Below, piece by piece: positions 10,816 to 49,465 of a stretch of 64,000 nt of DNA. Below the pieces are notes generated by a model. It was not told where the DNA came from. It saw nothing but the letters and a program-made list of their open reading frames with translations, and did not search any database. Where the stretch lies: positions 13,943 through 77,942 of the forward strand of contig JACPQZ010000048.1 of the NCBI GenBank assembly GCA_016190205.1, in the 5' to 3' direction. The translations under genes were made by a program, and so were the position numbers. How positions within the stretch are numbered: the first letter of the stretch is position 1; each line of letters starts with the position of its first letter. The DNA comes from Candidatus Omnitrophota bacterium. GTDB taxonomy: Bacteria; Omnitrophota; JACPQZ01.

Positions 10816-10819
10816 AGGC

Positions 10820-32835: not shown

Positions 32836-33195
32836 ATGAGCAGACTAAAAGAGATATGGTTAATGACCGCCCTGTTTGTCACAGGCACTTGCCTGACAAT
32901 TGTGAGCGGCGCGCTTGCTCAGGCAGACCTTCTGAGTATGTCGGGCGAGATCGTTGCGATTGACATTGCCTCGAAAACACTCTCTCTAAAAGGAGAGTCT
33001 TTTAACCAGGAGGAGTTTGTGTTCGAGGACAACGTCAAGGTCTTGCAAGGCGGAGATTCAGCCGCCTTGGAGGAACTCGCGCAAGGCGACCAGGTGACGG
33101 TCTGGTACCGCGAGGAGACAGATGGTCAGAAGGTGAGCGAGGCCATCGAAATCCAAGCGGCGGAAGGAGCCAGCCCGGAAGGCGGCAACTACTAA
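32836..33195 (+). CDS. Small secreted hypothetical protein
   Basis: Signal peptide. 119 aa. Confidence 0.5.
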   Translation: MSRLKEIWLMTALFVTGTCLTIVSGALAQADLLSMSGEIVAIDIASKTLSLKGESFNQEEFVFEDNVKVLQGGDSAALEELAQGDQVTVWYREETDGQKVSEAIEIQAAEGASPEGGNY

Positions 33196-33244
33196 AACAT
33201 ATGATTGGGTAGGCGTAGTCCCACAATAAAAGCAATGAAGAAAT

Positions 33245-33286
33245 GATGGCCTAGGGTTCGAAAATTCCCTAGGCCATCGTTTTTTA
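33245..33286 (+). terminator. Rho-independent terminator
   Basis: GATGGCCTAGGG-TTCGAAAATT-CCCTAGGCCATC followed by GTTTTTTAT. Confidence 0.75.
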
Positions 33287-33314: not shown

Positions 33315-33362
33315 TATAGAAAAATAAAGTTATTGTCATTCTCCACTATTGTATGCTACAAT
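33315..33362 (+). promoter_or_regulatory. AT-rich candidate promoter of the giant ORF
   Basis: TTGTCA...TACAAT-like elements in an AT-rich tract, immediately upstream of 33388. Confidence 0.35.
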
Positions 33363-33387: not shown

Positions 33388-36300
33388 ATGAATGTAAATA
33401 GCACCTATCTAGGACATTCAAAAAAGCGCCTTCGAGCGGTAGCCTGCCTTGTGCTGCAGGTTTTTATAACAACGGCCCTGCTTCCAGACTCTTACGCCCA
33501 AGATTACCTTGCCCCCTCCACGGTTTTTGGTCATCGAGGGTCCGCGGTGGACCAGCTTAAAACGCTCGCGGATATGTCGCGGGAAGAAGGTCGTGTTTCA
33601 GGCAAGCTTGAAAAGGCTGCAAATGGCCTCATGCTGGAGGCGGCTTACAAGTATGAGGGTGAAGAGCTCACGCGCGAGGAATTGGATAAGGCGCGTGGGG
33701 CACATGCTTTTATTTCTCGTCATGTAAAGGATGAAGCGGCGGAGGCGGAACGTGACGATTCCGAAGGAGTTGCCTCATCGGGCGACGGCCTTTCGGACCC
33801 TTCCCAGACGCCCGACTATCACTTGTCGGGGCCGGGAACCTATTTCGGCAAGGGGGATGTCCGCGAGCAGTTGGTCGATCCCTATCTGGACCGCGTCGTG
33901 AAAGATCCCGCCACGATCGTTATCCGGGAGGGGCAAGTAGTGCATGGACCTCTGGGGAAGGTTGAGCGCGGCCGGTATGAAGCAAAGTTCCGTGACCTGG
34001 AGAAGTTCCTGGGCTCGTCGCTGAAAGGTGTAGATTTCATCATCGTGGACAGCGAGAAGGCGAAGGGAGATTATGTGCGCAGTTCGGGAAAGGGCAGAAG
34101 ATACGTTCCGGCCAACGATGGAGATCGCGGCGCGATTCCGGTGACAAGGGATTATTACCACCTCCTTGAAAAGCCGGAAGACGGCTACGGCGAGCATGAC
34201 TTTCTCATTACGCAGGCCAGGCGCCATGCGCAGACGGGGAGGGAGCAGGTTTTCCTGAGCCGGCGGCTTTTTGAGGATATCCCGGCCTTTAGCCTGGTTC
34301 GCCACATCATCCGCAGTGCTTATCATCACGCCTTGATCCGCAGACCTGTCCCCAGTTATCGCACAGAATCTGTGGTTCGCCTCTTGGACGGTTGGACCCA
34401 GTTTCGGATGGATGAGCGCCGGCGCCGTCCCAATGTGATCCGGGCGATTGAAAATGAGATCGACCGGTTTGAGGATATCATTTTCGTTTTTCTGGGTGAG
34501 CGACCTAGGACTCAAGCGGAGCGCAGGGAGATCATCGCCCGAAATGAGGACCGCATTGCCGAGGCGCGCGCCTTTGCGGGCCGCCTCATGACAACCAACA
34601 CCTGGGTAGGAGAACTTAATGAGCCTCTGGGGCATTTGGGTACGCCTCTTATAGATGTCGACACAGGCAAAGAGACGGGGGAGGTCGTCTATCTGGTTGA
34701 AAACCGTGAGCCGGGCAAGGCCACACGCACCCAGCTCTTATACCGCCGCGGGGGAGAGGGCCCCCTCATTCAGATTATGCGGGACAACTGGTTTTTGCAC
34801 GGGGGCGAGTTCGATCCCCAGAAAAGGTATGGGTATTCCCAGCCTGAAATTTATGCCTTAAAAGAGCGCATCCTGGCTTCACCGCTCTTTATGCCCCGTC
34901 CCGAGCAGAAAGGCACGCCGGCGCACCAGCGCATCTTAAGAAGAAGGGTCGCCCGGGCGGATTGGTGGGGGGATGTCAGCGAATCCTTGAGCGGCGAGAT
35001 CAGCCGCTTGGATAAGAAAATCGAAGGCGAGCGGTTCGGCGCTCACGCCGTCTACGTGTTTGGCGAACGACTCACACGGAGGACGACCAGCGGTGTTCAG
35101 GGCCTCGGATTTGTTGAGGTGGATCTGGCGAAGGGCTCGCGCGAGCTCGTACTCTTTGACGCGGCAAGATTGGATACGATCGAGCAGACCTCTTTTCCCA
35201 TCAGGGCGCTGGATTACGTGCTGGACCAGTTCAAGGCGGCAGAGACCCTGGTCGTGCGACCTAGACGCGGTCTTGAGGTTCTGCAAGGTGCTGTGGATGA
35301 GCTCGTTCGTTCCGGAAGGCTCGCTCCAGAGTATGAAAAACGGGAAGCAAAGGCCAAGCTGGTCCGTTATAAAATCGTTAAGGAGGTGCCTGTCCCGGCA
35401 GCCATTTTTACACGCATCGCCAGACGCATTGAGACCATGATCGGCCGGTACGTTATCCTCGTGGGTGGCGGGACAGGGGCGGGCAAGACCCGGGGAACGA
35501 GCGAGATCGAGGCGATCGAGGAGGAGCTTAAGAATCGTCATCTGCCCCGCGCGCACAATGTCACGAAGGTGGATATAACGGATTATATAAGAAAGAAGGC
35601 GGAGAGGGATGGTCTCTATTTCAGGGGAAGACCCGACAATGGCTCCCCCCGAGCCTTTTACATCGATCTGCTCGTCGAGCAGATCCAGACGCTTCTTGAA
35701 GGGCGCGCCGTTCATCTTCCCGCGCGGGGGCAGGGCATCGTCAATACAAGCGGCGAGAACAGGGCCAGCTTCGGCCAGGATGACATCCTGGTCATCCTGG
35801 GCATTTATTCCATGTTGGAGGATGTGTTGTGGGCCATCAATGAGGTAAATGAGGCGCCGAAAGATCTGGAGTTCGAAAGCCTTGCCCCGCAGCTCATCGA
35901 GGCCCCCTATATCGATGAAAAGCCCCTGGATGACGGGCGCTTTTTGAATGTGCTCCGGGTGTTTCTGGATGTCGATCCGGACATCCGGCTCCTGCGCAAG
36001 ATAGGGCGCGATTACCGTGAGCGTGAGGCGAGCCCGCTGGACAGCATACGGCGCTGGGGCTATATCCGCCTCATTGAGGACGACCACATTCTGCCGCAGG
36101 CGCGGCACGCCGAATTTATCATCGAAAACGTGCGCGAAAATGAGCTGGAAATTTTAGCGCAAGACAGCGAAGAAGGAGCGCTCCGGTACCTGCGTGTGGC
36201 CTACGAGGAGGCCCTGGAGGAAGCCGGCGGGAATCCCGACCGGGTCGACGCCTGGGATATCGGGAACATCCGCCGTCTTTATGACGTCTTGGGGGTAAAT

Positions 36301-39300
36301 TTTGAGGGGGATATCGGGGAGCCGTCCAAACTGCCCCGACATTTACGCGACGGGCTCGCGCGGGGAGATGGCATCCAAACTGCGCTTCCGGACTTAGGGC
36401 ACCCGTCTCCGAAGGAACTGGCCGCGCGGACCAAGTCGGTGCGCAGGCTTCTTGACGAGACGGGGATTAAGCTGGATCAGGCCGTGCGTGAGAAGCTCGA
36501 ATCGAGTCTCGCGCAACGCTACCTGGGCGTTGTTGTCGGTGAAGACATTTTGCGGGAATTTTTGGCCGAGTTTAAAACAAGGGCCGATAGAGAGAAATGG
36601 GTTGTGAACCTTTTTTCCATAGAATCCTTTCTTCAGAACCGCATCCTATCTTATTACCTTGAACACGCGGACGAGATCCTCCGAGGGCAAGGTGATAGGG
36701 GGATCGTGGCTTCGATTGACGTTTATCTGCTGCCCAAAACATACACCGCCAACCGCCGCTTGGATCGCAAGAAACTGATCCGCCGCATGGTTTTTCTAAA
36801 CGTGATGAGTATGGCGTCGACCGGAGACAAGCGGCTCGGCAGCATATCGTGTCAGGGGCTTGCCCAACTGGTTTTTCCCAGTACGAACGAGCACGTTTAC
36901 GGACCGGCGCTTGAAGTGATGGTCGAGATGCTGGCGGCCTTTAATAATACGCAGAGGGTTCAGTTTTGGGAGGGATTCAAGCCCCTCCTTCAGGATGCCG
37001 CCGAGCTTCCCCGCTTTGGCCGCGCCCTCATGAGACTTGCCCCACGCATCGTGCGCGGTGAGATCGAGAGGGTCAGCCGCACGATGCTCTCTCAAGCCGA
37101 CTTTTTGGAGGGATATAGACACACGCTGGAGTACGTCGCGGCACTTTCCACCCCCGTCCGGGACGAGATGATCGAGCATGCCGTAACGCTTGCCCAATCG
37201 AAAGATCAGGATCAGGCGGTCATCGAATTCTTAAGGCAGACGGTTAAGGATTTGGAAAAAATCGGCCCGGTTACTCCGAAACTTCTTCAGCAGATGAAGC
37301 GGCGGGGCGAAAGGATAACAGCGGTCACCGTGAGCGGCGAACGGGACGGCCGCTCGGTGGATGAAAAGGGTATGCCGGTGGCCCTCGTGGCTGATTCGGA
37401 GGTCGCCTTTGAAGAACAGCTCACCTCTTCAAAGGACGTGACGATTCGTATGATGCTGCCCCGTGTAAAGGAGTCGAGCCGCGGTATAAAGCGCGCGCTC
37501 CTCGTAGCCGACATGCCGTACGGCACTTATCAGACCGGGCCTCAGGCGCTCAAAAACGCGCAGCTTTTCATAGAGAACGGCGCGCGGGCTGTAGAGATCG
37601 AAGGAGGCCGTGAGGCGGTTTCTGCCATCGGGGCCGTGGTCGAGGCTGGAATTCCCGTTATGGGTCACATCGGTTTTACTCCGCACACGAAGAGCGAGGC
37701 AAGAATCTACGGGGCGACGCCCCAGGAGCGGAGCGAGCTCTTGCTGGATGCCCTCGCGCTTGAGAAGGCAGGAGCTTTTGCGCTCGTCCTTGAGCGCGTA
37801 CATCCTGATACTGTGAGGGCCATCAGGGGCGCGGTTTCGGTTCCCCTCCTAGGTGTTGCCTCTGGAAATTATATAGACGGCCAGGTGATACGGTTGCTGG
37901 ATCTTCAGGCGGTACGGGGAGACGGGGTCGAAGAGCCGGGCCAAGGGATTCAGGAAGCTGAATTTTTCGAGAGGCTTGCCAAAAGCCGCGGGTCCTGGCT
38001 TCCGGAACCTGTCAAGCGCCAGGATGGCACGGTCGAGCGCGTGGATGATCGCCACCGCGTCATCTGGGCGACCGTTCCTCACCGTGAGGGCCCCCTGGAG
38101 GTCATTTTTGTGAGAGAGGAGAAGGACCCGGACGGGCGCACGGTTCTTGTTTATGAGGTCTGGCAGGGCGGCCGGAGGATTGATCTTTTAAGCGAGGAAG
38201 GCCTGCGCCGCGAGTTCCGGTGGGGGGTTGTCAGGAGTGAATTCGGAGAGGCCCAGGAAGTGTTTATGCATCCAATCAAGCTCGAAGAGGACGCCCGTCA
38301 CATGGGCATCGGGTTCGCGCTCGTGCAGTGGTCGTCGAACCGCGCCTTCGAGATCGGGGCGCCGCGCTTCACGGCTTCCGCGCTTTTCAATCCCAATATG
38401 CAGCCGCTCCTTGCCCGTGTGCTGGAACCGGGCAGTGTGAATATCACGGTCGTACGCGAGGACTGGAAGAAGCCGCTTACGGTCGCGACGCCGGAAGAGT
38501 TTTGGATTGCAGTGGGAGAGGTTCGTGTAGAGGGGGGTTATGGGGTACATTTTGAAGTGGACAAGGCCAGCCCGGGAGGGCTTAAAGTTACTACCAACGT
38601 GCCCGGGTTACACGATGCCGAAAACCGTCCTATCTCATTCATGGACGGGGAGCGATTGCGAAGTACTGTGGAGGTAGACGGTTATGCCTTGCGGGTGTTG
38701 GATCCCGTTGAAAAAGATGAGAGTGGACGACCCCGCTATCATTCCACCCGTTATTCGGAGGGTGTTTTAGTCTATTTTTCAGGACGGCCGGTGAGGGTGA
38801 TCCGGCAGAGGATCTTCAACGCGGCCTCCAACAAAATTTGGACCCCCGTGGCCGCGGCCGCTATTAAGTGGGTTGCGGGCCGCACGGAGCTTGGGGCCGT
38901 ACCCCTCGTCCCGCCCTGGGCAAGCGCCCGCCAGGCCAAACTCATCCTGCGGGAGGAGGTCATTCATTTTCAGGAGGCCATGGATCAGGTGGTCGCGCGC
39001 ATCAAAGACCACCGCCATGAAGGGGAGCCTTTCCACTGGTTGAGGGAACTCGCTCGAGATGCGATGTCCAGAATCAGATCTGACTCTCAAGAGAGGGTGC
39101 TTAGAATGCTGGATGAACTAAGAGACGCCACCACCCGCCAGCTTCAGATTGCGCGCGTCCCTGCCCACTGGATTTTCAGGTCTTTGGTCCGCAGGAGGCT
39201 GGAAGGAGGACTTAGGGCGCAGGATCCCGAGGTGGCGCAGGCACTCGAGGAGATAGCCAACGAAGTGACGGAGCGGATCCTCCACCGTTTTGACTTGGCC

Positions 39301-42300
39301 GAACCGGGGGCTTCGGAGAAAGAAGTGGGGGAAGCCGTCACAACCGAAATCAGGCGGGCAGAGAGGGTTTTTGCCGAGATGCGCCGTCGGAGCGAAAAGG
39401 CCGCGGAGGAAGCAAAGATAAGGGGGGATTCTACGGAGGCTTTCTACATCGGGATGACGGGCAACTATCTCGACGATATCGAGAAAGTGCTTAAGACACT
39501 CGTTAGAACAGAGAAAAAGCGAGCGAACTACTTGTTGGACGTTTTCTTTGAACCCTCCAGGCTGGTTCAGGTTCCCGAGGCAGAGGTAAAAACTCTTAGC
39601 GAGACGCAACAAGTGCTGCGCGATTTCCATATCAAGAAGCAGGCTTCGGCTATGAGCCAGGCGGCACCGGACATCGAGTTTCTTTTAACGACTCTTGTCA
39701 TGAGAATGGCCGGGAGCACATCCTTGAGTTATAAGGGAATCTCCAAGGACGAGCTTAAGATAAGCGTCGAAGACGAGGTGGTTCGTTTTGAGGAGGCCTA
39801 CCAGCCGATCCAAAAGATTGTGTCAGAGGGCTTGGCCGGGCGGGAGTGGGCCGATTTCGAAGGCAGCATCGCCTCGGAGTGGAAGGCGCTTTTGGGACCC
39901 GATCTTGAGAAGATTTTTGCGCAAGTGTCCCGGGGCGAGGAGGGCAGTGTCGTGAAGTTTGCCCTGGAGGCCCCCGGCAGGATTCTGGAGCGCATACGCG
40001 GCACGGACAGCTCCACGGCCGAGCAGGCCATGTACGACGTCGTGGAGGAATGGCTGGGCGGGGGCAGTCGTAATGCCGAGGAGGTCGCTGCGGTGGAGAC
40101 CATCGCCCGCTTTCTCATGTATCAGATGGAGGCAATACCCTCGCGGGATCCGGCATGGCTGCGTGAACCCAGGATCATGGTGGTAGACGGGTTGTTTGAC
40201 GTACGCGCGGCTGACGAGAAGATCGGAGCGTACAACGTGGTGGGATTCGCGTTCACGGAAGGGACCTCCAAATCCCATGTCTCCGATGTGTTGGCAGGCA
40301 GGAATATCCCGGTCATGACCGGTATTCCAAAAGAGTTGGTGGCCTTGATTCAGGGGGGCGAGAGAGTGATCCTGGATCCCATCCGCGGTGAGATAGTTCT
40401 CAATCCGGATGATGAAGGGGGGGAAATGAAGCGCCGGTCAAACCCAGAGCTTTTGAGGCGTGCCTGGGAAACCCGTTTCGACCCCGTCGTCACGCAGGAT
40501 GGAAAGACATTTAGAGTGTATGCCAATGTGAACGGGCTGGAAAACATCCAGGACCTCAAAGAGTGCGGCGCGGAGGGCGTGGGCCTGGTGCGTACCGAGT
40601 ATTGGTATCAGAATCCCGTGAAAAGGCGTACGGAAGAAGAGCTTGAGAAAGGGTTCCTGGAGCTTGCGGATGCCGTTCCGGGACCGGTCACGATCCGACT
40701 TTTGGACCGTGCTACCGACAAGGCTACGCCTGCGCTTAAGTCAGAAAAGGCGCTCTACGGCCTGCGTTACTTATTGGATGATCCGGAAGGACAGGAGGTT
40801 GCCCGGGAAGAGATGCGGGCTGCGGTGCGGGCGAATCTTAGGTCCGCCCGGAAAAATATCCGGATCATGGTTCCCATGGTCGCTACCCAGGAGGATGGAG
40901 AGCGCATCCAGTCGGTGTGGAAATCGGTGATAGTAGGGCTTCGTGATAAGGGTGCTTTGAGCGAGGACGACGTGGTTCCTCCGTTCGGTTACATGATCGA
41001 GCTTAGGAGCGCAGTGGCACTCGTTAAGACCCTCGCCCGGCAGGCGGATTTTTTCAGCATCGGACAGAATGACCTCGTCAAGTCATGGTTTAACGTGAGC
41101 CGTGACGAACCCCTGCACCGGCGCTACTTCGATCTCCTGCATCCGGAGATCTTGGAGGCCGATTCCGAAATTGCGGGTTCGAAGGAGGATTGTTCCTTGT
41201 GCGGCGCGAGCGCCCGCGACCCCGAGTTTTCGCTCTTCCAGGCTGTGCTGAAGTCTCAAGGCGTGAACCTGGATTCGAGCGTGGCTGTGCCAGGAGTTCC
41301 GATTACTAAGTTCGCGCTTCGGTCCATGCATACAGGCGAAGCCGCGCGGCTTTTTGAGCGTTGGCTCTCCGAGGAAAAGGATCCGGCCGAGCTCACCCGG
41401 CTCGCGCGGGAAGCGGCCGACCGTTTCATTGCCGCGGCCCTGGGAAAAGAGCCTGCCGGCGAGGGCGCGCCGGAGGGAGAGGGGGACGGAGTCGCGGGTG
41501 ATGGCGTAGCGGAGTGGAGCGGCAAGGCCAGGGGGGACGCGGTTTATGATCCTGTTCGTAATAGCGTCCGTTTTGAGCGGACGGGCGATAAGACGTGGAT
41601 TGAAACAGACCGCTCCGAGCTTATCGGAAAGACCTTTGTAACGGTAGGAATGGAGCATCTTAATCCGCATTTTAAGTATATCGATGCCGTTACTGCGAAT
41701 GCGAAAGGAGGTTTAGCTGCCCACGCGCTTGCCAAGCTTCAGGGGTGGAGCGAAATTGGTCTTTCGAAGAATGGGTCCTACGGAATATTTCCTCTTTATG
41801 CGTCTCCTGATCTGCGTCAGGAAGACAGAAAACCTCTCATTCACACTGTGTCCTATGTGGGAGAACCTGTCGAACAGGTCATCGATGTCAATGGCAAGCC
41901 TCTTTTCATCAAGGTCTATGGAGCTGGGGTTGGCGGGAACTTTAGGGAGAATATCCCCTATAATGTGGGGGTGATGTACACCCGGATCGCGGGAACCGAC
42001 GTGTTTTACTTGTACAACGGATCCGTTTTCAATTACCTCTACGATGCACCGCTGCTCAAAGTTCACCAGAACAGGCAGAATCGCTTTAACCAAGAGGCCA
42101 TCTTTGCCAAGGCGGCCCACCTTTTAATGAAAATATTGGCTAAAGAGGATCCCCACATCGTAGATCCCAAATTCAAAAGGTCCCTTCCGGCGCTATTGCA
42201 TTTTAACGAGGCGCACACGGCGCCCCTGGCCGAGATGGTGAGCCAAGATCCTGAAATGAGCGGTGTGGCCCTCGTGGGCACCAACCACACCATCGTAGAC

Positions 42301-45300
42301 GCCGGGCTTGAGCGGTATGAATTGGACAAACTTTGGTGGGGCTTTAAGCGAGCGTTCTTTGTATTGGGTACGGCCGAGGAGCATCACTACAAATATATCG
42401 TGGGAGACCGCATAGATTTCTCGAAGCCTTTTACGACGCTGTTGCACAAGATTAACGGTGTTTCTGAAGAGCACGGGGGTTTAACGCGCGAGCTTTACCG
42501 GAGGGCGTTGGGAGTAGATGTGGACGTAGCATCCGTCCTAAATGGTGTGAGTGATTTTAGGCGTATCCCCCAGCTCGTGCAGATGGAGCGTGAAGGCAAA
42601 GAGATTACCCCGCAAGTGTTGCTGAATCTCCACAAACAGGCGAAGCGGGAGGCGGTCGAGGATATTTTCCGAAGGACTGGTGTCAGGCTTGATGTTAACG
42701 AGCCCATTGTGGGTCTGGTGCGTCGCATCACTCCCTACAAGGGTCAGTACGATATACTTCGTTGGCTCGTGGATGTGATGACCGCACCGCGCGACCAGAC
42801 GTTTACTCCTGATAGCCTGTGGAGGGTATGGTCAGAAAAAACGATTGGACGTGAATTGGATAATCCTTCGAGCAATCTCCACGCAATTGGCAAGACCGTG
42901 CAACATCATCTTTTCAAAGATCGCCAGGAGATTCGCGGCCTGGGGTTACAGGTTGTGGTAGGGGGACCCGAGTATGAGGAGAGCTGGGTGCGGATCTTTA
43001 AGTCCTGGTCGCGTGAGGGTTCGCACCTTTATGGGAGATTCGTGTATGTACCCCAAGCTGATCACAAGCTCCTGGTCACCCAGGCCACAGGCTTTGAAGT
43101 TACGGCGGAAACCCCCTGGCCCAAACAGGAGGCTGCGGGGACGTCCGGCGACGATTCGAGTGGAAACGGTCATATCAGCGTGGCCTCTGCGCCCGGCACC
43201 GTGGAGCGCGCGATCAACGAGCTGGAATATCCTGGCGAGGGTACAGCTTACACCCTGGACGGCGCCAGGCTCTATGAAACCCCTGCCGATTTTTTAAGTA
43301 AGGCGCCGGCCGATTTTTTTGGGGTCTTTGAGGACACCTCGAACAAATGGTACGGGCACCTCGAGGTGGCGGCCCAGGGCGTTTCCGAAACGGAGACGGA
43401 TTATGCGATGCTCGTATGGAGGTCGTACCTGGGGTTCCATGGACTTTTGGAGGGAACAAAGGCGGCGACAGCCGAGAGGATGGAACGGGATTACGTGGAC
43501 CGGGTCTACCTCCCGGCGCTTAAGGAAGTGGAGCGATTGAAAGGGGTCCCCGGCTCGCAGGGCGATGGGGTTCAGGAAGACGGGATCAAGTCCGCATTGA
43601 CAGTCCCGCTCCACGAACTCAATGAGCGATTGACCCGGGAGATTGAGGGCGTGAAGGGCGACGGAGTAGACTCTATCCTCGCGGAACCTCTGCACGATCT
43701 GCGGGCGCGGCTTGAGCAGGAGTTGCAAGGAGTACCTGATGCATCGCCGGCGGCCGAGCAGAATGATAATGTTGCGCGTCAGAAGCTGGGATCCTGGTTA
43801 CGGAGAATCTGGCTCCGCGAATCCCGATGGATCTGGAGGCAAAATTCCCATCTGCCCATCCGTGTGCGCATGGCGCTCGCTACGGAGCTTTTGGATCGCC
43901 TCTTTGGCGCCATTTATGAGGCGACGCAGAAGCGGTTTGGAGAAAAGGCCAGCGAGATGGCCATTGTGGCCAGAGGAAGTTATGCGCGTTCCGAAATCAT
44001 GCCGGGCTCCGACATAGACGTCAGATTGCTGGTTCCCCACATCGATGTCGAAGATTTGAAGCGGGTGGAAGAGGAAGGCGGGCTGCCTGAAAAACATCTG
44101 GATTGTCACTTTTTTGCCGGGGTGATGAACAGTTCTTTCCCGAAAGCCGCGCTGCTCTTCAGTACTGTGGACGACGTAGTCCCTTGGGCGGGCGACGATG
44201 CGAAACAACAAGACAACGGTTATCTGGAAGCCTGTCTGGTGACAGGGAGCAGGGCGCTCTGGCAGAGGTGGCGCTCCGGCACAGTCGAGGCGCTTCAGTC
44301 TAGAGATACTTGGAAACTCCATGTGAGAGGAGTTCGGTCATCGTGGGATGAGCGGTACCGAAAGGCGCGGTTTTTAGAAGGGCTGCACCTGCGTCAGCCT
44401 GACCTCAAGGATGGTCTCGGCGGGCTTCGTGATTACCACTACGCTTACTGGCTGGGCTTGGGCGCTCTTGTCTTCCATGCGAATGACTTGGGATCGCTGG
44501 CAGAGAAGGAAGTCATTCGTGATGAGGAGGTGTGGCGGTTCTTAATCGATAGGAGTGTGGTCCGGTCCAGTGAAGTCGACAAGGTAAAAGAGGCTTACCT
44601 TGTGCTTCTTCGCATTCGGGCAGTCTTAAATCAGATCCATCCCGATTCGACCATCATGAATGTGGTGGACTACGAATGGGTCGCGCGCCAGCTCGGATAC
44701 CGGGATGGTCCTCGGGTGGATGTGGAACGGTTCTTAAGGGATTTCAGGAAAAGTCAGGAAACCGTATTTCATTTCGCCTATCGCGTGGTAAGACTGATCG
44801 GGGAGATGGCGGATCCTCCCCATGTGGTGACCGAAAACCGGGTGGGAGTTCCCAAGGGCATAAAATCCGTGCAGGTCGATGGATCGCTTTTGTCCTTCGG
44901 ACATGGCGTGCGTACCATGCGTCAAACGGTCCTCGAGATCGACGAGAAGATTGAAGGCCCTCGGGACATTGCGGTGACCCTCTTCGATGCCTTGCGCTAC
45001 GTATCGCGGCACCCTACCGCAGTTTTAAATGGGGCGTTCGTCGACGCCCTGGAATCACAGATCGCCGCGGGCGGTCCCGATAAGGCACGCCTTCAGCGCG
45101 AGTTTGGGAAATTTCTGGATTTCACCGAGGGGCCTATTTCCTATGGACTGCGTAATCTGCGGTTTTTAAGGATATCTGAAGACCCGGGCGGCATGCTTGC
45201 CGATATTCTTCCCTTTAATCATGACCTCGTTTATCCCATGCGGCTTGAGCCCCCCCATCGCTTGACGCTGGATATGTACCTTTTGAGAAACCTGGACGTA

Positions 45301-47361
45301 GCAGAAGCGCTTCTCTTTGAGAGGCCTGATCTTGCCATGGGGTCAGAAGGCGCGCAGATGGAGGGGTTCGGCGATCTCCAAAGCAGCCTGTGGCCTGTGC
45401 TGGACTATATTTGGGATCGTGAACTTGTGCGCGCGCTGCGCGCTGCTCTGCTCCTCCAGGCGTTAAACCCCCCTGAATCGGAGCGCAGGCGCCGGGGCCT
45501 TCGGGAAGAGGACATCGAAAAAAGCGTTGTGGAATCTTTGAAGAACTGGGGAATCATCGAGGACAACCAGAGCCCTATGAGCCGTGAGGCCGAGCTTGCT
45601 CTTTGGCTTATTAAGAATCAGTTTAGTCTGATCGAATCACTGCGGAGAGGGGTGCAGTATGTCCCCTCCGAAATGGCGTCAGTACTGGAAAAGGAACTTG
45701 AGGGTGACCCGGACCGCTTCTCATTGCTCGTGGCCTTTACACTCATAAAACTGGCTGTGCTTCAGCCCACGAACCTGGAACAGCGCCTGCGCGACATGGC
45801 GCCCATCTTTAATATCGATCCGGTTCAGATTGCCGACCGCGAGCAGGTGAAACAGTTCATCGAGGAAGCCAACGAAAAAATCATTGCACAGCATCGGGCT
45901 GAGCTCAAGCAGTTTGAAAAGAGTGAGGAGACGGTTTGGGTTAAGGGTATGGGCGATATGCGAAAAGTGGACAGGGAGCACACGGTAGAAATTCTCATTT
46001 CCTATAAGCTCCCAGGCGGTCAGGACAGGCCGGGGATTCTGGCTGATATCGCGGCAGCGTTTCTTTCCGCGGGACTGAATGTCGAGGGCGGAACGGCGGG
46101 GCTCGGGCCGGGCGGGAAGATCTTGGACCGGTTTGTCGTAAGACCTGTTTGGGGCTTTCGTGGTCGTACCTGGCAGGGCATTCTGAATGAACTCAAGACG
46201 GCTTTGAGCAGTCTCTTAAACGGCGAGGTCAATCGGGAGGAGCTCATCAAGTCCATTAGGGCTGACGATAAAACGGCAAAGCTCATCGCGTCGGGGAGAC
46301 TGCCTCGACCCAGAAGCGATATCCCGACGGATGTTCGCATCGAAGGGGTGAAAGAGGGCGAGCGGGCGCTCACGGAGCTCCGCAGCGAGACCGCCGATTC
46401 GATGGGCCTCTTTTTCATGTCAGCAGACCTCCTCGACCTGCATAAGATCAATGTACACTGCATGGTTATCGACAATGAAGGCGATGATCCGCAGTTGCAG
46501 AAGGCAATCCAGCATTTTGAAATGACGAAGGGCGACTACCCTCTCGATCGGAAAGAGAGATCGAACATCCATGACATTTTGGAGCATGTTTTAGCCCAAA
46601 AAGACTATATTGATATCTGGATGTGGCAGTCGCCTGAGAGTGAGGCTGAAGAGCTCGCCGCAGAGGGGCCGCTCACGCCCGAGGGGGACGGTGTGGGTGT
46701 GGATGCCGAAAAGGTGCTGGGGGACCTCCGGGATGAATTAAACTTTCCCGAGGGCGATGGCTACGCGGTGGTTCAACCCATGGCGTCTGTTTTAGACGCG
46801 CGTCCTGCGCGTTTTGCAGATTCCAGGCATGTATCTCGGCTGACCATCGAGAGGGTCATGGACGCGGCGAGCGCACAAGCCCAGTCGGACCGTCACTTTG
46901 ATATCTTGATCGACGCCGTGGATGAAGACGGGGTTGAGGCCGCTAACGAGTTTGCGCCATTCCTCGAACAGCTCTCCCAGAAAATAGCGACGGTCGGGGG
47001 GCCGGAGAGCGGATTGCGTATTATCTTGGCAACAGGGGATAATGTGGAGGGCAGGCTCGATCCTATTTTTGACCGGTTGGATGTCATGAGATTCCCTGCC
47101 CGTTATCGGCCGGGGGACATGATCTCGGTTCGCGCAGTCGAGGTTTACCTGGAGCAAAAGTACAACGTCCGGATTGCCATCGATCACTTGCTGCTGCGTT
47201 TAAAGGAGCACCAGGCCCGTTGGGATGCTCCTGGCATTGTGCCCACGGTCCTCGAGATCATCCGGGATCTTAAGGACCTTGAGAATCCCGAGCTCTGGCA
47301 GGACCCGCACAAATTACCAACCCTCTACTTCGCCATGCGAAGCCATGAAGAGGCGGCTTAA
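33388..47361 (+). CDS. Giant multidomain protein (4,657 aa). Domain order, in approximate aa positions:
- N-terminal signal-anchor-like segment.
- Uridine-kinase/PRK-like P-loop kinase (about 686-910).
- PanB-like ketopantoate-hydroxymethyltransferase / PEP-mutase-superfamily domain (about 1300-1510).
- Possible GNAT-like domain (about 1540-1700).
- PEP-utilizing phosphohistidine 'mobile' domain plus PEP-binding TIM barrel (about 2260-2600).
- Tentative GT35 glucan-phosphorylase-like region (about 2850-3250).
- GlnE/GlnD-type nucleotidyltransferase (about 3480-3800).
- Two C-terminal ACT domains (about 4260-4450).
   Basis: An uninterrupted 13,974-nt ORF in a 60% GC genome. Motifs read directly from the translation:
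- VILVGGGTGAGKT and RKIGRDYRERE (uridine-kinase-like).
- ALLVADMPYGTYQTGPQ...AVEIEGG...IPVMGHIGFTPHT (PanB-like).
- GFAFTEGTSKSHVSDVLAGRNIPVMTG, GLVRTEYWY, IMVPMVATQED and FFSIGQNDL (PEP-utilizing, PtsI/PPDK-like).
- IVARGSYARSEIMPGSDIDVRLLVP and LKDGLGGLRDYHY (GlnE/GlnD nucleotidyltransferase).
- RPGILADIAAAFLSAGLNV (ACT). Confidence 0.9.
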   Translation: MNVNSTYLGHSKKRLRAVACLVLQVFITTALLPDSYAQDYLAPSTVFGHRGSAVDQLKTLADMSREEGRVSGKLEKAANGLMLEAAYKYEGEELTREELDKARGAHAFISRHVKDEAAEAERDDSEGVASSGDGLSDPSQTPDYHLSGPGTYFGKGDVREQLVDPYLDRVVKDPATIVIREGQVVHGPLGKVERGRYEAKFRDLEKFLGSSLKGVDFIIVDSEKAKGDYVRSSGKGRRYVPANDGDRGAIPVTRDYYHLLEKPEDGYGEHDFLITQARRHAQTGREQVFLSRRLFEDIPAFSLVRHIIRSAYHHALIRRPVPSYRTESVVRLLDGWTQFRMDERRRRPNVIRAIENEIDRFEDIIFVFLGERPRTQAERREIIARNEDRIAEARAFAGRLMTTNTWVGELNEPLGHLGTPLIDVDTGKETGEVVYLVENREPGKATRTQLLYRRGGEGPLIQIMRDNWFLHGGEFDPQKRYGYSQPEIYALKERILASPLFMPRPEQKGTPAHQRILRRRVARADWWGDVSESLSGEISRLDKKIEGERFGAHAVYVFGERLTRRTTSGVQGLGFVEVDLAKGSRELVLFDAARLDTIEQTSFPIRALDYVLDQFKAAETLVVRPRRGLEVLQGAVDELVRSGRLAPEYEKREAKAKLVRYKIVKEVPVPAAIFTRIARRIETMIGRYVILVGGGTGAGKTRGTSEIEAIEEELKNRHLPRAHNVTKVDITDYIRKKAERDGLYFRGRPDNGSPRAFYIDLLVEQIQTLLEGRAVHLPARGQGIVNTSGENRASFGQDDILVILGIYSMLEDVLWAINEVNEAPKDLEFESLAPQLIEAPYIDEKPLDDGRFLNVLRVFLDVDPDIRLLRKIGRDYREREASPLDSIRRWGYIRLIEDDHILPQARHAEFIIENVRENELEILAQDSEEGALRYLRVAYEEALEEAGGNPDRVDAWDIGNIRRLYDVLGVNFEGDIGEPSKLPRHLRDGLARGDGIQTALPDLGHPSPKELAARTKSVRRLLDETGIKLDQAVREKLESSLAQRYLGVVVGEDILREFLAEFKTRADREKWVVNLFSIESFLQNRILSYYLEHADEILRGQGDRGIVASIDVYLLPKTYTANRRLDRKKLIRRMVFLNVMSMASTGDKRLGSISCQGLAQLVFPSTNEHVYGPALEVMVEMLAAFNNTQRVQFWEGFKPLLQDAAELPRFGRALMRLAPRIVRGEIERVSRTMLSQADFLEGYRHTLEYVAALSTPVRDEMIEHAVTLAQSKDQDQAVIEFLRQTVKDLEKIGPVTPKLLQQMKRRGERITAVTVSGERDGRSVDEKGMPVALVADSEVAFEEQLTSSKDVTIRMMLPRVKESSRGIKRALLVADMPYGTYQTGPQALKNAQLFIENGARAVEIEGGREAVSAIGAVVEAGIPVMGHIGFTPHTKSEARIYGATPQERSELLLDALALEKAGAFALVLERVHPDTVRAIRGAVSVPLLGVASGNYIDGQVIRLLDLQAVRGDGVEEPGQGIQEAEFFERLAKSRGSWLPEPVKRQDGTVERVDDRHRVIWATVPHREGPLEVIFVREEKDPDGRTVLVYEVWQGGRRIDLLSEEGLRREFRWGVVRSEFGEAQEVFMHPIKLEEDARHMGIGFALVQWSSNRAFEIGAPRFTASALFNPNMQPLLARVLEPGSVNITVVREDWKKPLTVATPEEFWIAVGEVRVEGGYGVHFEVDKASPGGLKVTTNVPGLHDAENRPISFMDGERLRSTVEVDGYALRVLDPVEKDESGRPRYHSTRYSEGVLVYFSGRPVRVIRQRIFNAASNKIWTPVAAAAIKWVAGRTELGAVPLVPPWASARQAKLILREEVIHFQEAMDQVVARIKDHRHEGEPFHWLRELARDAMSRIRSDSQERVLRMLDELRDATTRQLQIARVPAHWIFRSLVRRRLEGGLRAQDPEVAQALEEIANEVTERILHRFDLAEPGASEKEVGEAVTTEIRRAERVFAEMRRRSEKAAEEAKIRGDSTEAFYIGMTGNYLDDIEKVLKTLVRTEKKRANYLLDVFFEPSRLVQVPEAEVKTLSETQQVLRDFHIKKQASAMSQAAPDIEFLLTTLVMRMAGSTSLSYKGISKDELKISVEDEVVRFEEAYQPIQKIVSEGLAGREWADFEGSIASEWKALLGPDLEKIFAQVSRGEEGSVVKFALEAPGRILERIRGTDSSTAEQAMYDVVEEWLGGGSRNAEEVAAVETIARFLMYQMEAIPSRDPAWLREPRIMVVDGLFDVRAADEKIGAYNVVGFAFTEGTSKSHVSDVLAGRNIPVMTGIPKELVALIQGGERVILDPIRGEIVLNPDDEGGEMKRRSNPELLRRAWETRFDPVVTQDGKTFRVYANVNGLENIQDLKECGAEGVGLVRTEYWYQNPVKRRTEEELEKGFLELADAVPGPVTIRLLDRATDKATPALKSEKALYGLRYLLDDPEGQEVAREEMRAAVRANLRSARKNIRIMVPMVATQEDGERIQSVWKSVIVGLRDKGALSEDDVVPPFGYMIELRSAVALVKTLARQADFFSIGQNDLVKSWFNVSRDEPLHRRYFDLLHPEILEADSEIAGSKEDCSLCGASARDPEFSLFQAVLKSQGVNLDSSVAVPGVPITKFALRSMHTGEAARLFERWLSEEKDPAELTRLAREAADRFIAAALGKEPAGEGAPEGEGDGVAGDGVAEWSGKARGDAVYDPVRNSVRFERTGDKTWIETDRSELIGKTFVTVGMEHLNPHFKYIDAVTANAKGGLAAHALAKLQGWSEIGLSKNGSYGIFPLYASPDLRQEDRKPLIHTVSYVGEPVEQVIDVNGKPLFIKVYGAGVGGNFRENIPYNVGVMYTRIAGTDVFYLYNGSVFNYLYDAPLLKVHQNRQNRFNQEAIFAKAAHLLMKILAKEDPHIVDPKFKRSLPALLHFNEAHTAPLAEMVSQDPEMSGVALVGTNHTIVDAGLERYELDKLWWGFKRAFFVLGTAEEHHYKYIVGDRIDFSKPFTTLLHKINGVSEEHGGLTRELYRRALGVDVDVASVLNGVSDFRRIPQLVQMEREGKEITPQVLLNLHKQAKREAVEDIFRRTGVRLDVNEPIVGLVRRITPYKGQYDILRWLVDVMTAPRDQTFTPDSLWRVWSEKTIGRELDNPSSNLHAIGKTVQHHLFKDRQEIRGLGLQVVVGGPEYEESWVRIFKSWSREGSHLYGRFVYVPQADHKLLVTQATGFEVTAETPWPKQEAAGTSGDDSSGNGHISVASAPGTVERAINELEYPGEGTAYTLDGARLYETPADFLSKAPADFFGVFEDTSNKWYGHLEVAAQGVSETETDYAMLVWRSYLGFHGLLEGTKAATAERMERDYVDRVYLPALKEVERLKGVPGSQGDGVQEDGIKSALTVPLHELNERLTREIEGVKGDGVDSILAEPLHDLRARLEQELQGVPDASPAAEQNDNVARQKLGSWLRRIWLRESRWIWRQNSHLPIRVRMALATELLDRLFGAIYEATQKRFGEKASEMAIVARGSYARSEIMPGSDIDVRLLVPHIDVEDLKRVEEEGGLPEKHLDCHFFAGVMNSSFPKAALLFSTVDDVVPWAGDDAKQQDNGYLEACLVTGSRALWQRWRSGTVEALQSRDTWKLHVRGVRSSWDERYRKARFLEGLHLRQPDLKDGLGGLRDYHYAYWLGLGALVFHANDLGSLAEKEVIRDEEVWRFLIDRSVVRSSEVDKVKEAYLVLLRIRAVLNQIHPDSTIMNVVDYEWVARQLGYRDGPRVDVERFLRDFRKSQETVFHFAYRVVRLIGEMADPPHVVTENRVGVPKGIKSVQVDGSLLSFGHGVRTMRQTVLEIDEKIEGPRDIAVTLFDALRYVSRHPTAVLNGAFVDALESQIAAGGPDKARLQREFGKFLDFTEGPISYGLRNLRFLRISEDPGGMLADILPFNHDLVYPMRLEPPHRLTLDMYLLRNLDVAEALLFERPDLAMGSEGAQMEGFGDLQSSLWPVLDYIWDRELVRALRAALLLQALNPPESERRRRGLREEDIEKSVVESLKNWGIIEDNQSPMSREAELALWLIKNQFSLIESLRRGVQYVPSEMASVLEKELEGDPDRFSLLVAFTLIKLAVLQPTNLEQRLRDMAPIFNIDPVQIADREQVKQFIEEANEKIIAQHRAELKQFEKSEETVWVKGMGDMRKVDREHTVEILISYKLPGGQDRPGILADIAAAFLSAGLNVEGGTAGLGPGGKILDRFVVRPVWGFRGRTWQGILNELKTALSSLLNGEVNREELIKSIRADDKTAKLIASGRLPRPRSDIPTDVRIEGVKEGERALTELRSETADSMGLFFMSADLLDLHKINVHCMVIDNEGDDPQLQKAIQHFEMTKGDYPLDRKERSNIHDILEHVLAQKDYIDIWMWQSPESEAEELAAEGPLTPEGDGVGVDAEKVLGDLRDELNFPEGDGYAVVQPMASVLDARPARFADSRHVSRLTIERVMDAASAQAQSDRHFDILIDAVDEDGVEAANEFAPFLEQLSQKIATVGGPESGLRIILATGDNVEGRLDPIFDRLDVMRFPARYRPGDMISVRAVEVYLEQKYNVRIAIDHLLLRLKEHQARWDAPGIVPTVLEIIRDLKDLENPELWQDPHKLPTLYFAMRSHEEAA

Positions 47362-48052: not shown

Positions 48053-49465
48053 ATGATGACTGCTCAAGACCCTCTTAGCTCGCACGTGCTTCAGGAAATC
48101 AAGACCCGCAAGCTTTTGCTCCCGGGGGAGAAGATTGTCCTGGCTGTCTCGGGCGGTCCTGATTCCATGGCCCTCTTGCATGCTTTTTGCACATTCCGGA
48201 CAGCGCTTCACCTCAATCTTACCGTTGCTCATCTCGATCACTGTTTGAGGAAGGGTTCAAAACAAGACGCGGAGTTTGTGAAGTCCGCATGCCGGGTTCT
48301 CAACGTCCCTTTTGTGTCTGGGCGCGCGGATGTGAGACGGTTCGCCCGTACCAGGAAGTTGTCCATTGAAGATGCCGCGCGCAGGCTTCGTTACCGGTTC
48401 CTCGTCAAGGCGGCGAAGAAAGCGGGGGCGCGAAAAATCGTAACGGCGCACACGCAGGATGATCAGGCCGAAACTGTAGTCTTGCAGCTCGTTCGCGGGG
48501 CGGGGCTGTCTGGGGCAAGTGGGATGGACTGGAGCGGTCCGGTGGGCACTGGTCAGTCGCGCGCAGTACGGCTTGTCAGGCCTTTTTTGAGCACCCCGCG
48601 CGCGGAGATCCTAAAATTTTTGCGGCGTTGCCGCATCAGGTTTAGAGAAGACCCCACCAATTCGAGCAGGCGTTTTAAGCGCAACCGCCTTCGGCACGAT
48701 GTGATGCCGCTGCTTAAGCGTTTGAACCCGAGGGCAGTGAAGCATCTGGCGACCTTTGCAGAAATCCTCTCGACTGGAAAAGAATATATCGACCGTGTGA
48801 CCGAAGGAGTTTTTACTCGGTTGGCTCATGAGCGCCCGGGACGCTGTCAATTCCAGCGGTCTGAGTTCATAAAATTGCCGCGGGCCATCCAGCAGGGTCT
48901 TTTCCGGCAGGCTGTCGCCCGGCTCGGAGGAGAAGAGGCCAGTCTGAATTTCCGTCATTGGCAGCTGTTCCACCAAGCTCTGTACAAAGAGGGCGTGCCA
49001 GCCCTCCTTCACTTCCCGCGTTCCATCGAGGTCGGGCTCGACGACCGAGTGGTCAGTTTTTCAAAAACCCGCCCTGCCAAGAAGATTCGTAGCGTGAGCA
49101 TTCCTAAAGTGAGGTCGGGTGAGGTTGCTTTCGCTGACCGGACGATCACGTTTAACATGTTTCCACGGACTAGGAGGCTTTTTCCGAGAGGACGAGCCGG
49201 TGAGGCGTGGCTTGACGCTGAAAGGGTCTGGTTTCCCATTCAGGTGCGCACACGGCGGCCGGGCGACCGGTTTATTCCCCTCGGAATGAGGCAATCAAAA
49301 AAGCTCCAGGATTTTTTAGTGGATGAAAAAGTCCCGCGCTCGGAGCGCGATTCCCTGCCCATTTTTCAGGACCGGAGGCAGATTGTCTGGGTGGGGGGGA
49401 AACGCCTCGCAGACTCCGTCAAGATCACCCCTCAAACCCGCCAGGTGCTTAGGATTTCCCTCTGA
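48053..49465 (+). CDS. tilS: tRNA(Ile)-lysidine synthetase
   Basis: PP-loop motif SGGPDSMAL. Full length with a C-terminal substrate-binding domain. Confidence 0.85.
   Translation: MMTAQDPLSSHVLQEIKTRKLLLPGEKIVLAVSGGPDSMALLHAFCTFRTALHLNLTVAHLDHCLRKGSKQDAEFVKSACRVLNVPFVSGRADVRRFARTRKLSIEDAARRLRYRFLVKAAKKAGARKIVTAHTQDDQAETVVLQLVRGAGLSGASGMDWSGPVGTGQSRAVRLVRPFLSTPRAEILKFLRRCRIRFREDPTNSSRRFKRNRLRHDVMPLLKRLNPRAVKHLATFAEILSTGKEYIDRVTEGVFTRLAHERPGRCQFQRSEFIKLPRAIQQGLFRQAVARLGGEEASLNFRHWQLFHQALYKEGVPALLHFPRSIEVGLDDRVVSFSKTRPAKKIRSVSIPKVRSGEVAFADRTITFNMFPRTRRLFPRGRAGEAWLDAERVWFPIQVRTRRPGDRFIPLGMRQSKKLQDFLVDEKVPRSERDSLPIFQDRRQIVWVGGKRLADSVKITPQTRQVLRISL

Follow-up and report, generated by a model that had tools for sequence, protein, structure and literature searches.

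A leader, a tail and a recurrent junction peptide frame five enzyme-like modules in a 4,657-residue protein of Omnitrophota

Here we describe a giant gene of a Candidatus Omnitrophota bacterium (assembly GCA_016190205.1, contig JACPQZ010000048.1), located at positions 33388-47361 (+) of the 64-kb stretch of DNA that was analysed, hereafter the window. Its product, referred to below as the giant, has 4,657 amino acids (aa; ~0.5 MDa) and consists of five cargo modules placed between an N-terminal leader and a C-terminal domain. Leader and tail are homologous to those of another giant with unrelated cargo, and a short peptide, GDG followed by V, L, I or Y, recurs between the modules. With a confidence that only somewhat exceeds an even chance, we favour the reading that this protein is a polyprotein of a chassis-plus-cargo type, in which a conserved leader and tail enclose autonomous, repurposed modules separated by junction peptides.

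Multi-enzyme giants are a hallmark of the Omnitrophota, a phylum that is widespread and whose members are ultra-small bacteria, probably dependent on hosts. To our knowledge, nobody knows whether these giants act as single chains or as cut pieces. Giant open reading frames (ORFs) occur across Omnitrophota classes (Seymour et al. 2023, PMC10066038). Giants joining glycosyltransferases, glycolytic enzymes, NUDIX and 'pyruvate-diphosphate kinase domains' were reported by West-Roberts et al. 2023 (bioRxiv 10.1101/2023.11.21.568195), who defined Archaeovorins by HEAT/TPR scaffolding and GT5/GT1/NUDIX content, the largest examples having at least 30 thousand amino acids (kAA). In the classification of Nielsen & Lui 2026 (bioRxiv 10.64898/2026.06.07.730766), 'multi-enzyme metabolic clusters' form class 1 of three architectural classes; 94% of giants of at least 10 kAA carry a signal peptide or transmembrane (TM) helices and 80% are sequence singletons. 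Cleavage of Omnitrophota giants into smaller products has been proposed in the literature, without known sites, and according to a published analysis the absence of known cleavage points has blocked their further study.

Results

Reading frame and module layout

The giant ORF runs from ATG to stop exactly over 33388-47361 (+) and its 4,657 sense codons contain no stop in a genome of 57% GC. In every block of 500 codons, relative synonymous codon usage in frame 0 correlates with that of housekeeping genes of the window at r 0.61-0.79, the two other frames lying between -0.32 and 0.48, and GC content, measured over the same blocks, is even along the ORF (0.55-0.60). Nothing in these profiles points to a chimera or to a concealed frameshift. 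In GenBank, the protein corresponds with 100% identity to MBI2871091.1, which comes from a metagenome-assembled genome (MAG) of a Candidatus Omnitrophica/Omnitrophota bacterium. The single ORF of the original prediction, made by a model from the letters of the sequence, is thereby confirmed. The GenBank model is shorter (4,636 aa), as it starts 21 codons downstream, at 33451 instead of the first ATG at 33388. The GenBank start removes the positively charged n-region. With the ATG start the signal peptide is complete and aligns with those of two other proteins (P0017 and P0002, see below). Neither candidate start has an obvious Shine-Dalgarno sequence.

All six domain calls of the original prediction were recovered, in the same order, by Pfam, NCBIfam and PDB searches, including the glucan-phosphorylase-like region that had been put forward as tentative. 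In the description of the layout, residue numbers are followed by nucleotide positions in the window; all features of the gene lie on the + strand. The N-terminal leader (aa 1-131, 33388..33780) comprises a signal peptide, the sequence LAPST (aa 41-45) and a helical stretch, and is followed by the first junction, GDGL (aa 132, 33781..33792). Module 1 (aa 133-992, 33784..36363) starts with about 550 aa of unassigned sequence and continues into a uridine-cytidine-kinase-like P-loop kinase (aa 688-922, 35449-36153; Pfam PRK 5e-8, NCBIfam uridine kinase 9e-14, PDB UCK1 2jeo 1.4e-6). Beyond GDGI (aa 993, 36364..36375), module 2 (aa 994-1510, 36367..37917) is made of a helical region and a PanB-like barrel (aa 1294-1510, 37267-37917; Pfam Pantoate_transf 1e-49, PDB 1oy0 4e-35 and 1m3u 3.5e-31). 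GDGV (aa 1511, 37918..37929) separates it from module 3 (aa 1512-2698, 37921..41481), in which a beta-rich region and about 440 aa predicted to be helical precede an Enzyme-I-like (EI-like) part, composed of a phosphohistidine swivel and a PEP-binding barrel (aa 2207-2664, 40006-41379; PEP-utilizers_C 4.5e-42, TIGR01417 3.4e-41, E. coli EI 2hwg 7e-34).

A double junction, GDGV-A-GDGV (aa 2699 and 2704, 41482..41508), leads to module 4 (aa 2705-3391, 41500..43560), whose residues 2736-3379 resemble alpha-glucan phosphorylases (GT35-like, with a GT-B fold). This match is supported by TIGR02094 (6.9e-6) and by a two-sequence profile against PDB 9l6i (1e-6). Two further GDGV junctions (aa 3392 and 3424, 43561..43668) surround a helical spacer of 31 aa. 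Module 5 (aa 3425-4432, 43660..46683) is a complete GlnD-like unit, with homology over aa ~3460-4424. It contains a nucleotidyltransferase (GSYARSEIMPGSDID, aa 3530-3544), the helical GlnD_UR_UTase domain, an HD domain in degenerate form (LLLQALN, aa 4021) and a pair of ACT domains, the supporting matches being TIGR01693 (1.8e-22), PF08335 (1.5e-11) and, weakly, Pfam ACT (7e-5). The last two junctions, GDGV (aa 4433) and GDGY (aa 4456; together 46684..46764), are followed by the C-terminal domain (aa 4457-4657, 46756..47358), which has an alpha/beta fold and ends in HEEAA.

The nucleotidyltransferase and the twin ACT domains, although both present as predicted, are not separate fusions. In an exhaustive HMMER search with the last 1,198 residues, a single unit of about 950 aa emerged, uniting the nucleotidyltransferase with the helical GlnD domain, some 400 residues more and the ACT pair, which is colinear with that of true GlnDs. 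Since these parts make up one full-length GlnD homolog, the cargo modules number five, not six.

Segment-wise Pfam scans assigned no family to aa 133-687, 994-1293 and 1512-2206, apart from a weak GNAT hint in the beta-rich region of module 3 (aa ~1622-1675, E 0.039). For aa 1512-2340, AF2 run on the single sequence gave a model with a mean pLDDT of 37, which was discarded. No internal repeats were detected in the giant, in agreement with the earlier statement that it is not of adhesin type, nor were RTX repeats (GGxGxD) or LPXTG features found in it. Family scans of the giant gave no match to HEAT, TPR, GT1 or NUDIX domains, and no peptidase domain, including the cysteine protease domain, was met in the family libraries.

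Relatives of the leader, the tail and the modules

The whole giant was compared by BLAST with 151 retrieved proteins, denoted here by P numbers; all named relatives are from Omnitrophota. None of the 151 contains more than one of its cargo modules, and the exact combination of five modules is unique in the searchable sequences. This uniqueness argues against obligatory functional coupling of these modules. The domain combination had been called unprecedented, and it was indeed not found elsewhere; the kind of protein has precedents in the published multi-enzyme giants of Omnitrophota.

Individual modules do recur. The GlnD-like unit (~950 aa) stands alone in P0005 (976 aa), occurs also in P0004 (1,421 aa), and counts among its further carriers P0006-P0009 and others, with more than ten other giants of 2,000-5,300 aa, where its partners are for example metallophosphatases and methyltransferases. 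It is colinear with true GlnDs of 850-950 aa, in single high-scoring segment pairs that extend through the ACT region. The GT35-like unit lies in P0002 beside alpha-amylase, GT1 and GT5 domains (30% identity with module 4 across 687 aa), and the EI-like unit lies in P0003 beside HEAT repeats.

The leader and the tail both have homologs in P0017, a protein of 2,834 aa from an unrelated sequencing run. The leader of the giant shares 29% identity with the N-terminus of P0017 (aa 18-111, E 4e-7), and the traits in common, all within the first ~110 residues, are a signal peptide, an AXA-type site, the motif LAPxSVF and a helical stretch. At the other end, the last ~180 residues are 35% identical (E 4e-27), with the termini EEAA in the giant and KEAA in P0017. 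The cargo of P0017 is unrelated: a ROK kinase, an Fe-ADH-like domain, a SIS domain, a class-II aldolase and an APH kinase. A third protein, P0015 (436 aa), has the same tail. Structure prediction of the tail gave an alternating beta/alpha domain with a core pLDDT of 68-84, whose structural neighbours are only generic Rossmann-like folds. The idea of a C-terminal domain universal to giants was dropped, as the tail profile did not score above reversed-sequence decoys on other giants.

The very C-terminus shows a wider regularity. Nine of the 13 retrieved proteins of at least 2,000 aa end in [AS]A, compared with four of 138 shorter ones (Fisher p 5e-9); among the large proteins considered were P0002, P0003, P0009, P0011, P0017, P0032, P0034, P0111, P0143 and the giant. 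The C-terminal domains of the giants ending in this way are not detectably homologous. We speculate that the [AS]A end could serve for recognition at the terminus, for instance by a C-terminal protease of PDZ type.

A different conserved N-terminal domain, of about 230 aa and with pairwise identities of 24-50%, was observed in P0009, P0011, P0013 and P0034, and judging by these alignments it looks like a second type of chassis. In P0009 and P0013, a calcineurin-like phosphoesterase follows the GlnD-like unit.

Junction peptides

The motif GDG[VLIY] occurs nine times in the giant (aa 132, 993, 1511, 2699, 2704, 3392, 3424, 4433 and 4456) where 0.43 copies are expected, and none of 1,000 shuffles reached nine. 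An unbiased screen of all 4-mers placed GDGV first (p 1e-8). All nine copies lie outside the homology-mapped segments, at most 80 aa from a segment end, and none of the six inter-segment gaps is without a copy (0 of 20,000 permutations). The flanks of the motif are rich in disorder-promoting residues (0.685 versus 0.534) and depleted of hydrophobic ones (0 of 5,000 permutations). The placement is further supported by the standalone GlnD-like protein P0005, the ends of which project to aa ~3420 and ~4419 of the giant, within about 15 aa of the delimiters at 3424 and 4433.

Codons and flanking DNA vary among the copies of the motif, so that selection works on the peptide and not on the DNA; the same variation rules out a DNA-level repeat or a recombination joint as the origin of GDGV. 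The junctions are not gene-like either, having no stops and no starts with ribosome-binding sites.

The relative sharing both termini carries the same peptide. P0017 has four GDG[VLIY] motifs (0.20 expected), one located 16 aa past its leader and the others 21, 29 and 10 aa before the aldolase, the APH kinase and the tail, respectively. In ordinary proteins the motif occurs 0.064 times per 1,000 aa, and neither these nor most other giants are enriched in it. A second motif, [RA][SA]E[VMTLAS]R, was found in P0009, P0013, P0032, P0034, P0159 and P0161, in 4-11 copies against 0.12-0.27 expected, which is a 20- to 70-fold enrichment. Its variants include RSEVR, RSEMR, RSETR and RAELR, and it frames Pfam domains and modules, among them the GlnD-like unit of P0032. 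From these counts, lineage-specific junction peptides appear to be a general property of Omnitrophota giants.

Conserved and lost residues

Comparison of the modules with their parent families revealed that each keeps its transfer chemistry and has lost one family-defining feature, and that all five score far under the curated NCBIfam cut-offs. This pattern suggests that the modules are probably repurposed relatives of housekeeping enzymes. Relative to UCK1 (2jeo), the kinase of module 1 keeps the Walker A sequence GGGTGAGKT, the catalytic Asp after strand 2 (ITD, SQD in UCK1) and the Arg motif of the lid (DVDPDIRLLRKIGRD, aligned with DTDSDVRLSRRVLRD of UCK1). It has an insertion of about 70 aa and reaches 51 bits (family cut-off 180).

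In the PanB-like barrel, alignment with 1m3u and 1oy0 shows that the Asp/Asp/Glu metal ligands and the catalytic Glu (equivalent of Glu181) are kept; the conserved residues are the Asp of GDS, the Asp of ADxP, the Glu of IEGG, the His of GH and the Glu of LE. One conserved position is changed. The giant reads VEIEGG (aa 1402-1407) where the family has VK[IL]EGG, so that Glu replaces a Lys present in both solved PanBs; this is Lys112 of E. coli PanB, which contacts the substrate carboxylate. The final ~40 positions of the PanB profile have no match in the giant, and the scores (NCBIfam panB 136 versus a cut-off of 207.6 bits, PRK00311 166 versus 272) stay below threshold. GenBank names the whole 4,657-aa protein '3-methyl-2-oxobutanoate hydroxymethyltransferase'. 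Because of the exchange of Lys for Glu, the sub-cut-off scores and the unmatched C-terminal part of the profile, this PanB name is not justified.

Module 3 resembles Enzyme I (PtsI/PtsP) in having a swivel and a PEP barrel with all the catalytic and PEP/Mg-binding residues of E. coli EI. Equivalents of His189 (His2297 in the giant, the catalytic His of the predicted TSKSH motif), Arg296, Arg332, Glu431, Asn454/Asp455 and Cys502 (Cys2605) of 2hwg are all kept, and the P-loop of module 1 and the G-S...D-x-D motif of module 5, likewise listed for checking in the original prediction, proved intact by alignment. Unlike Enzyme I, module 3 has no detectable HPr-binding subdomain; the GAF domain of PtsP and the ATP-grasp nucleotide domain of PPDK and PEPS were not found in it either. 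The alignment begins at EI residue 125, leaving residues 1-124 (the HPr-binding alpha-subdomain) unmatched, and TIGR01417 is matched from position 173 (141 bits versus a cut-off of 341.7). ATP-grasp (PPDK_N) gave no match in the giant at E <= 1 nor in segment scans; the resemblance to PPDK is confined to the barrel, which matches weakly. A further difference is that about 700 aa of unrelated sequence precede the EI-like part within the module. Family scans of the giant and the window detected no HPr-like, EIIA, ATP-grasp or PII-like element.

The phosphorylase-like domain of module 4 is a divergent match (TIGR02094 25 bits versus a cut-off of 191.7). It keeps the phosphate-site motifs RRxxxYK and HxNEAH. 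The Lys of E-A-S-G-T-S-x-x-K, which forms the Schiff base with pyridoxal phosphate (Lys680 of muscle phosphorylase), is Asp in the giant (EAAGTSGDD, aa 3248-3256) and Arg in P0002 (EACGTSDQR), compared with EASGTSGEK in 9l6i.

Module 5 is like GlnD in its full-length colinearity and its intact G-S...D-x-D nucleotidyltransferase motif. Unlike GlnD, it lacks the HD dyad, reading LLLQAL where eight true GlnDs have LLLHDxGK, and other conserved His and Asp columns of the HD domain are gone as well. In all five other aligned GlnD-like copies of the Omnitrophota type, the HD Asp is likewise lost, together with other HD residues. Since these residues are lost, no uridylyl-removing activity is expected of the unit. 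It scores 79.5 bits (NCBIfam cut-off 519). It differs from GlnD also in being embedded in a giant that bears a signal peptide and in its surroundings, no PII gene being present in the window or beside the standalone GlnD-like homologs, whose neighbours show no link to nitrogen genes either.

Signs of export

The sole hydrophobic segment of the giant is N-terminal (aa 14-35). KKRLR stands before it, and SYA|Q (aa 37/38) after it is an AXA-type site that in alignment is common to the giant, P0017 and P0002.

Cysteine is scarce. It makes up 0.17% of the giant and 1.02% of neighbouring housekeeping proteins (8,657 residues), a six-fold depletion (p 1.7e-12), and one of the eight remaining Cys is the catalytic Cys of the EI-like part. 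Related giants contain 0.00-0.10% Cys across 3,000-5,300 residues, compared with a mean of 0.90% in true GlnDs. There is no Cys at all in P0006 (5,309 aa), P0032 (3,999 aa) and P0034 (3,070 aa), and at most 0.10% in P0008, P0009 and P0111. Such depletion is typical of exported bacterial proteins. These traits agree with the class that Nielsen & Lui (10.64898/2026.06.07.730766) call 'signal peptide only'.

Genomic neighbourhood

Sites corresponding to the promoter and the upstream terminator of the original prediction were located. The gene upstream ends in a Rho-independent terminator, a hairpin at 33238..33285 (+) followed by a U-run, for which RNA folding gives a dG of -30.8 kcal/mol (z -8.0; 0 of 200 shuffles equally stable). 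A putative sigma-70-like promoter, TTGTCA-18-TACAAT with a TG extension, was assigned by consensus match (10/12) at 33333..33362 (+). On the 3' side, a PIN gene runs convergently and is accompanied by a VapB-like ORF, corresponding to the convergent vapBC noted earlier.

Directly upstream of the giant gene, a zinc metallopeptidase of M64 type (HELGH) with a fibronectin type III domain is encoded at 31170-32687 (+), flanked by genes for two small proteins with N-terminal hydrophobic segments (30647-31189 and 32836-33195). By position alone, this peptidase is a candidate processing enzyme.

The remaining genes of the window encode an F-type ATP synthase, enolase, the Suf system, TilS, a class II aminoacyl-tRNA synthetase and McsB/ClpC, as well as the envelope proteins FtsX/MacB-type and TamB-like; the surroundings are ordinary chromosome. 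Among the annotated genes of the window there are no secretion-system genes, type I secretion system (T1SS) genes included, and no pilZ genes, and PADLOC gave no hit to a defence system. No close ortholog of the giant was recovered when contigs of genomes and metagenomes were scanned, either with the full-length sequence or with the C-terminal alignment, and no contig matched the ATG-start translation exactly.

Two tRNA genes of the window deserve mention. A group I intron of 224 nt splits the tRNA gene at 14139-14436 (+); it matches Rfam RF00028 with 52.1 bits, the gathering score being 50. According to the splice rule of group I introns (the 5' exon ends in U, the intron in G), exon 1 extends to 14172, the intron covers 14173-14396 and exon 2 starts with CATAACCC. 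ARAGORN labels this gene tRNA-Leu(CAA); the anticodon CAU on a GGG/CCC stem, the C1xU72 mismatch and the absence of a long variable arm make it an initiator-type tRNA-Met. Group I introns are known in cyanobacterial tRNA-fMet genes, and we know of no report of such a tRNA intron in Omnitrophota. A low-GC stretch at ~10600-14500 (0.46-0.50, the window having 0.57), containing only short unannotated ORFs, ends at this tRNA and may be an integrated element beside it. A second tRNA with a CAT anticodon (30191-30265, +) precedes the giant gene by 3 kb, and the gene for TilS, the tRNA-Ile lysidine synthetase, follows just downstream of the giant gene (48053-49465, +). The second tRNA could be an elongator tRNA-Met or the tRNA-Ile2 substrate of TilS.

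Discussion

In the reading that we favour, the chassis would be formed by a Sec-type signal peptide and LAPxS leader at the N-terminus and by an alpha/beta domain ending in EAA at the C-terminus. Its cargo would be a uridine-cytidine-kinase-like P-loop kinase, a PanB-like oxo-acid barrel that depends on metal, an Enzyme-I-like phosphohistidine enzyme that uses PEP, a glucan-phosphorylase-like GT-B domain and, finally, a GlnD-like nucleotidyltransferase that has only the transferase function and carries two ACT domains as sensors. All modules would have been recruited from housekeeping families, keeping the residues for phosphoryl, nucleotidyl or metal chemistry and losing one feature by which the family is tied to its normal substrate or partner. 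The modules would be interchangeable and most likely separate enzymes rather than one relay. The GDG[V/L/I/Y] motifs, lying in flexible hydrophilic linkers, would serve as processing or hinge sites of an exported precursor, which would be divided into, or articulated as, autonomous enzymes at these points. The reading frame, the domains, the state of their residues, the shared termini, the enrichment and placement of the motif and the scarcity of Cys are observed; that the protein is exported, is cut at the motif and acts beyond the cell that makes it, we infer. That the GDG junctions are proteolytic sites is a fair possibility to which we give somewhat less than an even chance.

Several points weigh against this reading. 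All five enzymes need cytoplasmic co-substrates (ATP, UTP, PEP), which is at odds with a periplasmic or extracellular site, and no secretion system is encoded nearby in the window. The signal peptide and its cleavage site were judged by eye, according to the AXA rule, and by hydropathy, not by a trained predictor. About 40% of the giant is without an assigned fold, and the family bracketed by GDG motifs comprises, among the retrieved sequences, three proteins (the giant, P0017 and P0015). Instead of being cut, the motif might act as a hinge in the structure or in docking. Cleavage is inferred only, with no protease assigned, and the M64 peptidase was rejected as a dedicated processing enzyme, as no peptidase adjoins P0017. 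The same paradox between the need for ATP, UTP and PEP and export was raised by West-Roberts et al. (10.1101/2023.11.21.568195). It would be solved if the enzymes act inside another cell.

This leads to a wider view, which we put forward tentatively and think unlikely rather than likely: the junction motifs (GDG[VLIY] in this lineage, RSExR in others) would be protease sites and Omnitrophota giants secreted polyproteins, cut into autonomous, repurposed enzymes (a kinase, a PEP-phosphotransferase, a GlnD-type nucleotidyltransferase and others) that act on or in a host or prey cell. The leader and the C-terminal domain would export the precursor, its AA-COOH end might recruit a C-terminal processing protease of PDZ type, and the released enzymes would work where ATP, UTP and PEP are available, in the host or prey cell.

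The main rival is an uncleaved scaffold or metabolon, in which the N-terminal segment anchors the chain at the inner membrane and the GDG linkers are hinges, with neither proteolysis nor delivery. The single N-terminal hydrophobic segment and the housekeeping neighbourhood without secretion genes suit it, linker-like flanks are as good for hinges as for cut sites, and Nielsen & Lui (10.64898/2026.06.07.730766) argue that many Omnitrophota giants are membrane-anchored and metabolic in content. A bare hinge, however, needs no invariant G-D-G plus hydrophobic tetrapeptide in paralogs with different cargo. By the positive-inside rule, moreover, KKRLR would put the bulk of the chain outside the cytoplasm, away from ATP and PEP; the strong Cys depletion argues for a non-cytoplasmic fate, and the AXA-type site is conserved in three proteins. 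Taken together, we find this scaffold doubtful, though a serious competitor.

The original prediction had seen in the giant a self-contained sensing-and-modification machine. In such a machine, PEP would phosphorylate His2297, the phosphoryl group or a conformational state would be passed on in cis to the kinase, the PanB-like or the phosphorylase-like module, and the GlnD-like unit would sense an amino acid by its ACT domains and nucleotidylylate a target, the single chain being required. The residues needed for transfer are intact (His2297, Cys2605, the P-loop, G-S...D-x-D), an EI-like part without a detectable HPr-binding part could have its acceptor in cis, EI-Ntr and GlnD are both generally known from nitrogen signalling of other bacteria, and P0003 likewise has an EI-like unit within a giant. 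Such a machine nevertheless does not agree with the distribution of its parts: no two cargo modules occur together in any other protein found, and elsewhere they stand alone or beside unrelated partners. Junction motifs and linker composition point to separable units, no partner element (HPr, EIIA, ATP-grasp, PII-like) was detected in the giant or the window, and a signal peptide and Cys depletion are unexpected in a cytoplasmic regulator. The claim of an integrated machine is not supported, since none of the findings requires it, and we regard it as improbable. Finally, a mis-assembled or frameshift-masked run of ordinary genes might be suspected in view of the MAG origin, the single contig on record and the failure to recover a close ortholog. 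It is hardly credible given 4,657 sense codons without a stop at 57% GC, with uniformly host-like codon usage and GC, and junctions that are not gene-like and bear a conserved peptide motif; besides, independent assemblies encode the same leader, motif and tail (P0017) and an embedded GlnD-like unit (other giants).

Among known systems, the nearest analogue of the chassis-plus-cargo organisation is provided by MARTX toxins, secreted proteins of 3,500-5,300 aa with conserved termini around interchangeable effectors, which are freed by cleavage at short inter-module sites. The likeness is one of organisation only; there is no sequence relationship, RTX repeats are absent from the giant, no cysteine protease domain was detected in it, and the window contains no T1SS genes. 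The giant differs from MARTX also in having a Sec-type signal instead of a type I signal and a cargo derived from housekeeping metabolic and regulatory enzymes. In polymorphic toxins, a pre-toxin delimiter motif, such as VENN in CdiA, marks the boundary between the delivery part and the swappable module. Unlike it, the GDG motif lies between every module of the giant, not just before a C-terminal toxin, and the giant has neither a toxin domain nor an immunity gene.

The catalogued Omnitrophota giants are similar in phylum, in the tiling of many unrelated enzymes with none dominating, and in the N-terminal signal peptide; PEP/pyruvate-dikinase-type and glycogen-synthase/phosphorylase-type domains recur in them, and they are mostly sequence singletons. 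Unlike them, the giant described here has only 4.6 kAA, too short to enter either survey (Nielsen & Lui set the limit at 10 kAA), and it is without HEAT, TPR and dockerin repeats, internal TM helices and nearby secretion or pilZ genes. It is thus a small, atypical relative of the catalogued giants and not a catalogued member. The kind of object was already known. GlnD-like, PanB-like and UCK-like modules, junction motifs and a shared leader and tail are mentioned neither by West-Roberts et al. (10.1101/2023.11.21.568195) nor by Nielsen & Lui (10.64898/2026.06.07.730766), and it is the junction motifs and the shared leader and tail that look new.

Besides correcting a misleading database name, the present case has the advantage that a small, clean giant exposes rules: a shared leader and tail, modules matching standalone proteins end to end, and a junction peptide. 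If the motifs are cut sites, giants could be divided computationally for structure prediction, candidate fragment ends would be at hand for proteomics, and the transferase-only GlnD relative would be a candidate host-modifying enzyme, comparable to the GlnE-like AMPylase of Legionella DrrA. If they are not, they still represent a conserved linker code marking module boundaries. The junction code, together with the shared leader and tail, makes the question of processing directly testable and supplies the first candidate cut points. Should the wider view of secreted and cleaved giants be true, Omnitrophota would have turned housekeeping metabolism into a bacterial equivalent of the polyproteins of viruses and of MARTX effectors.

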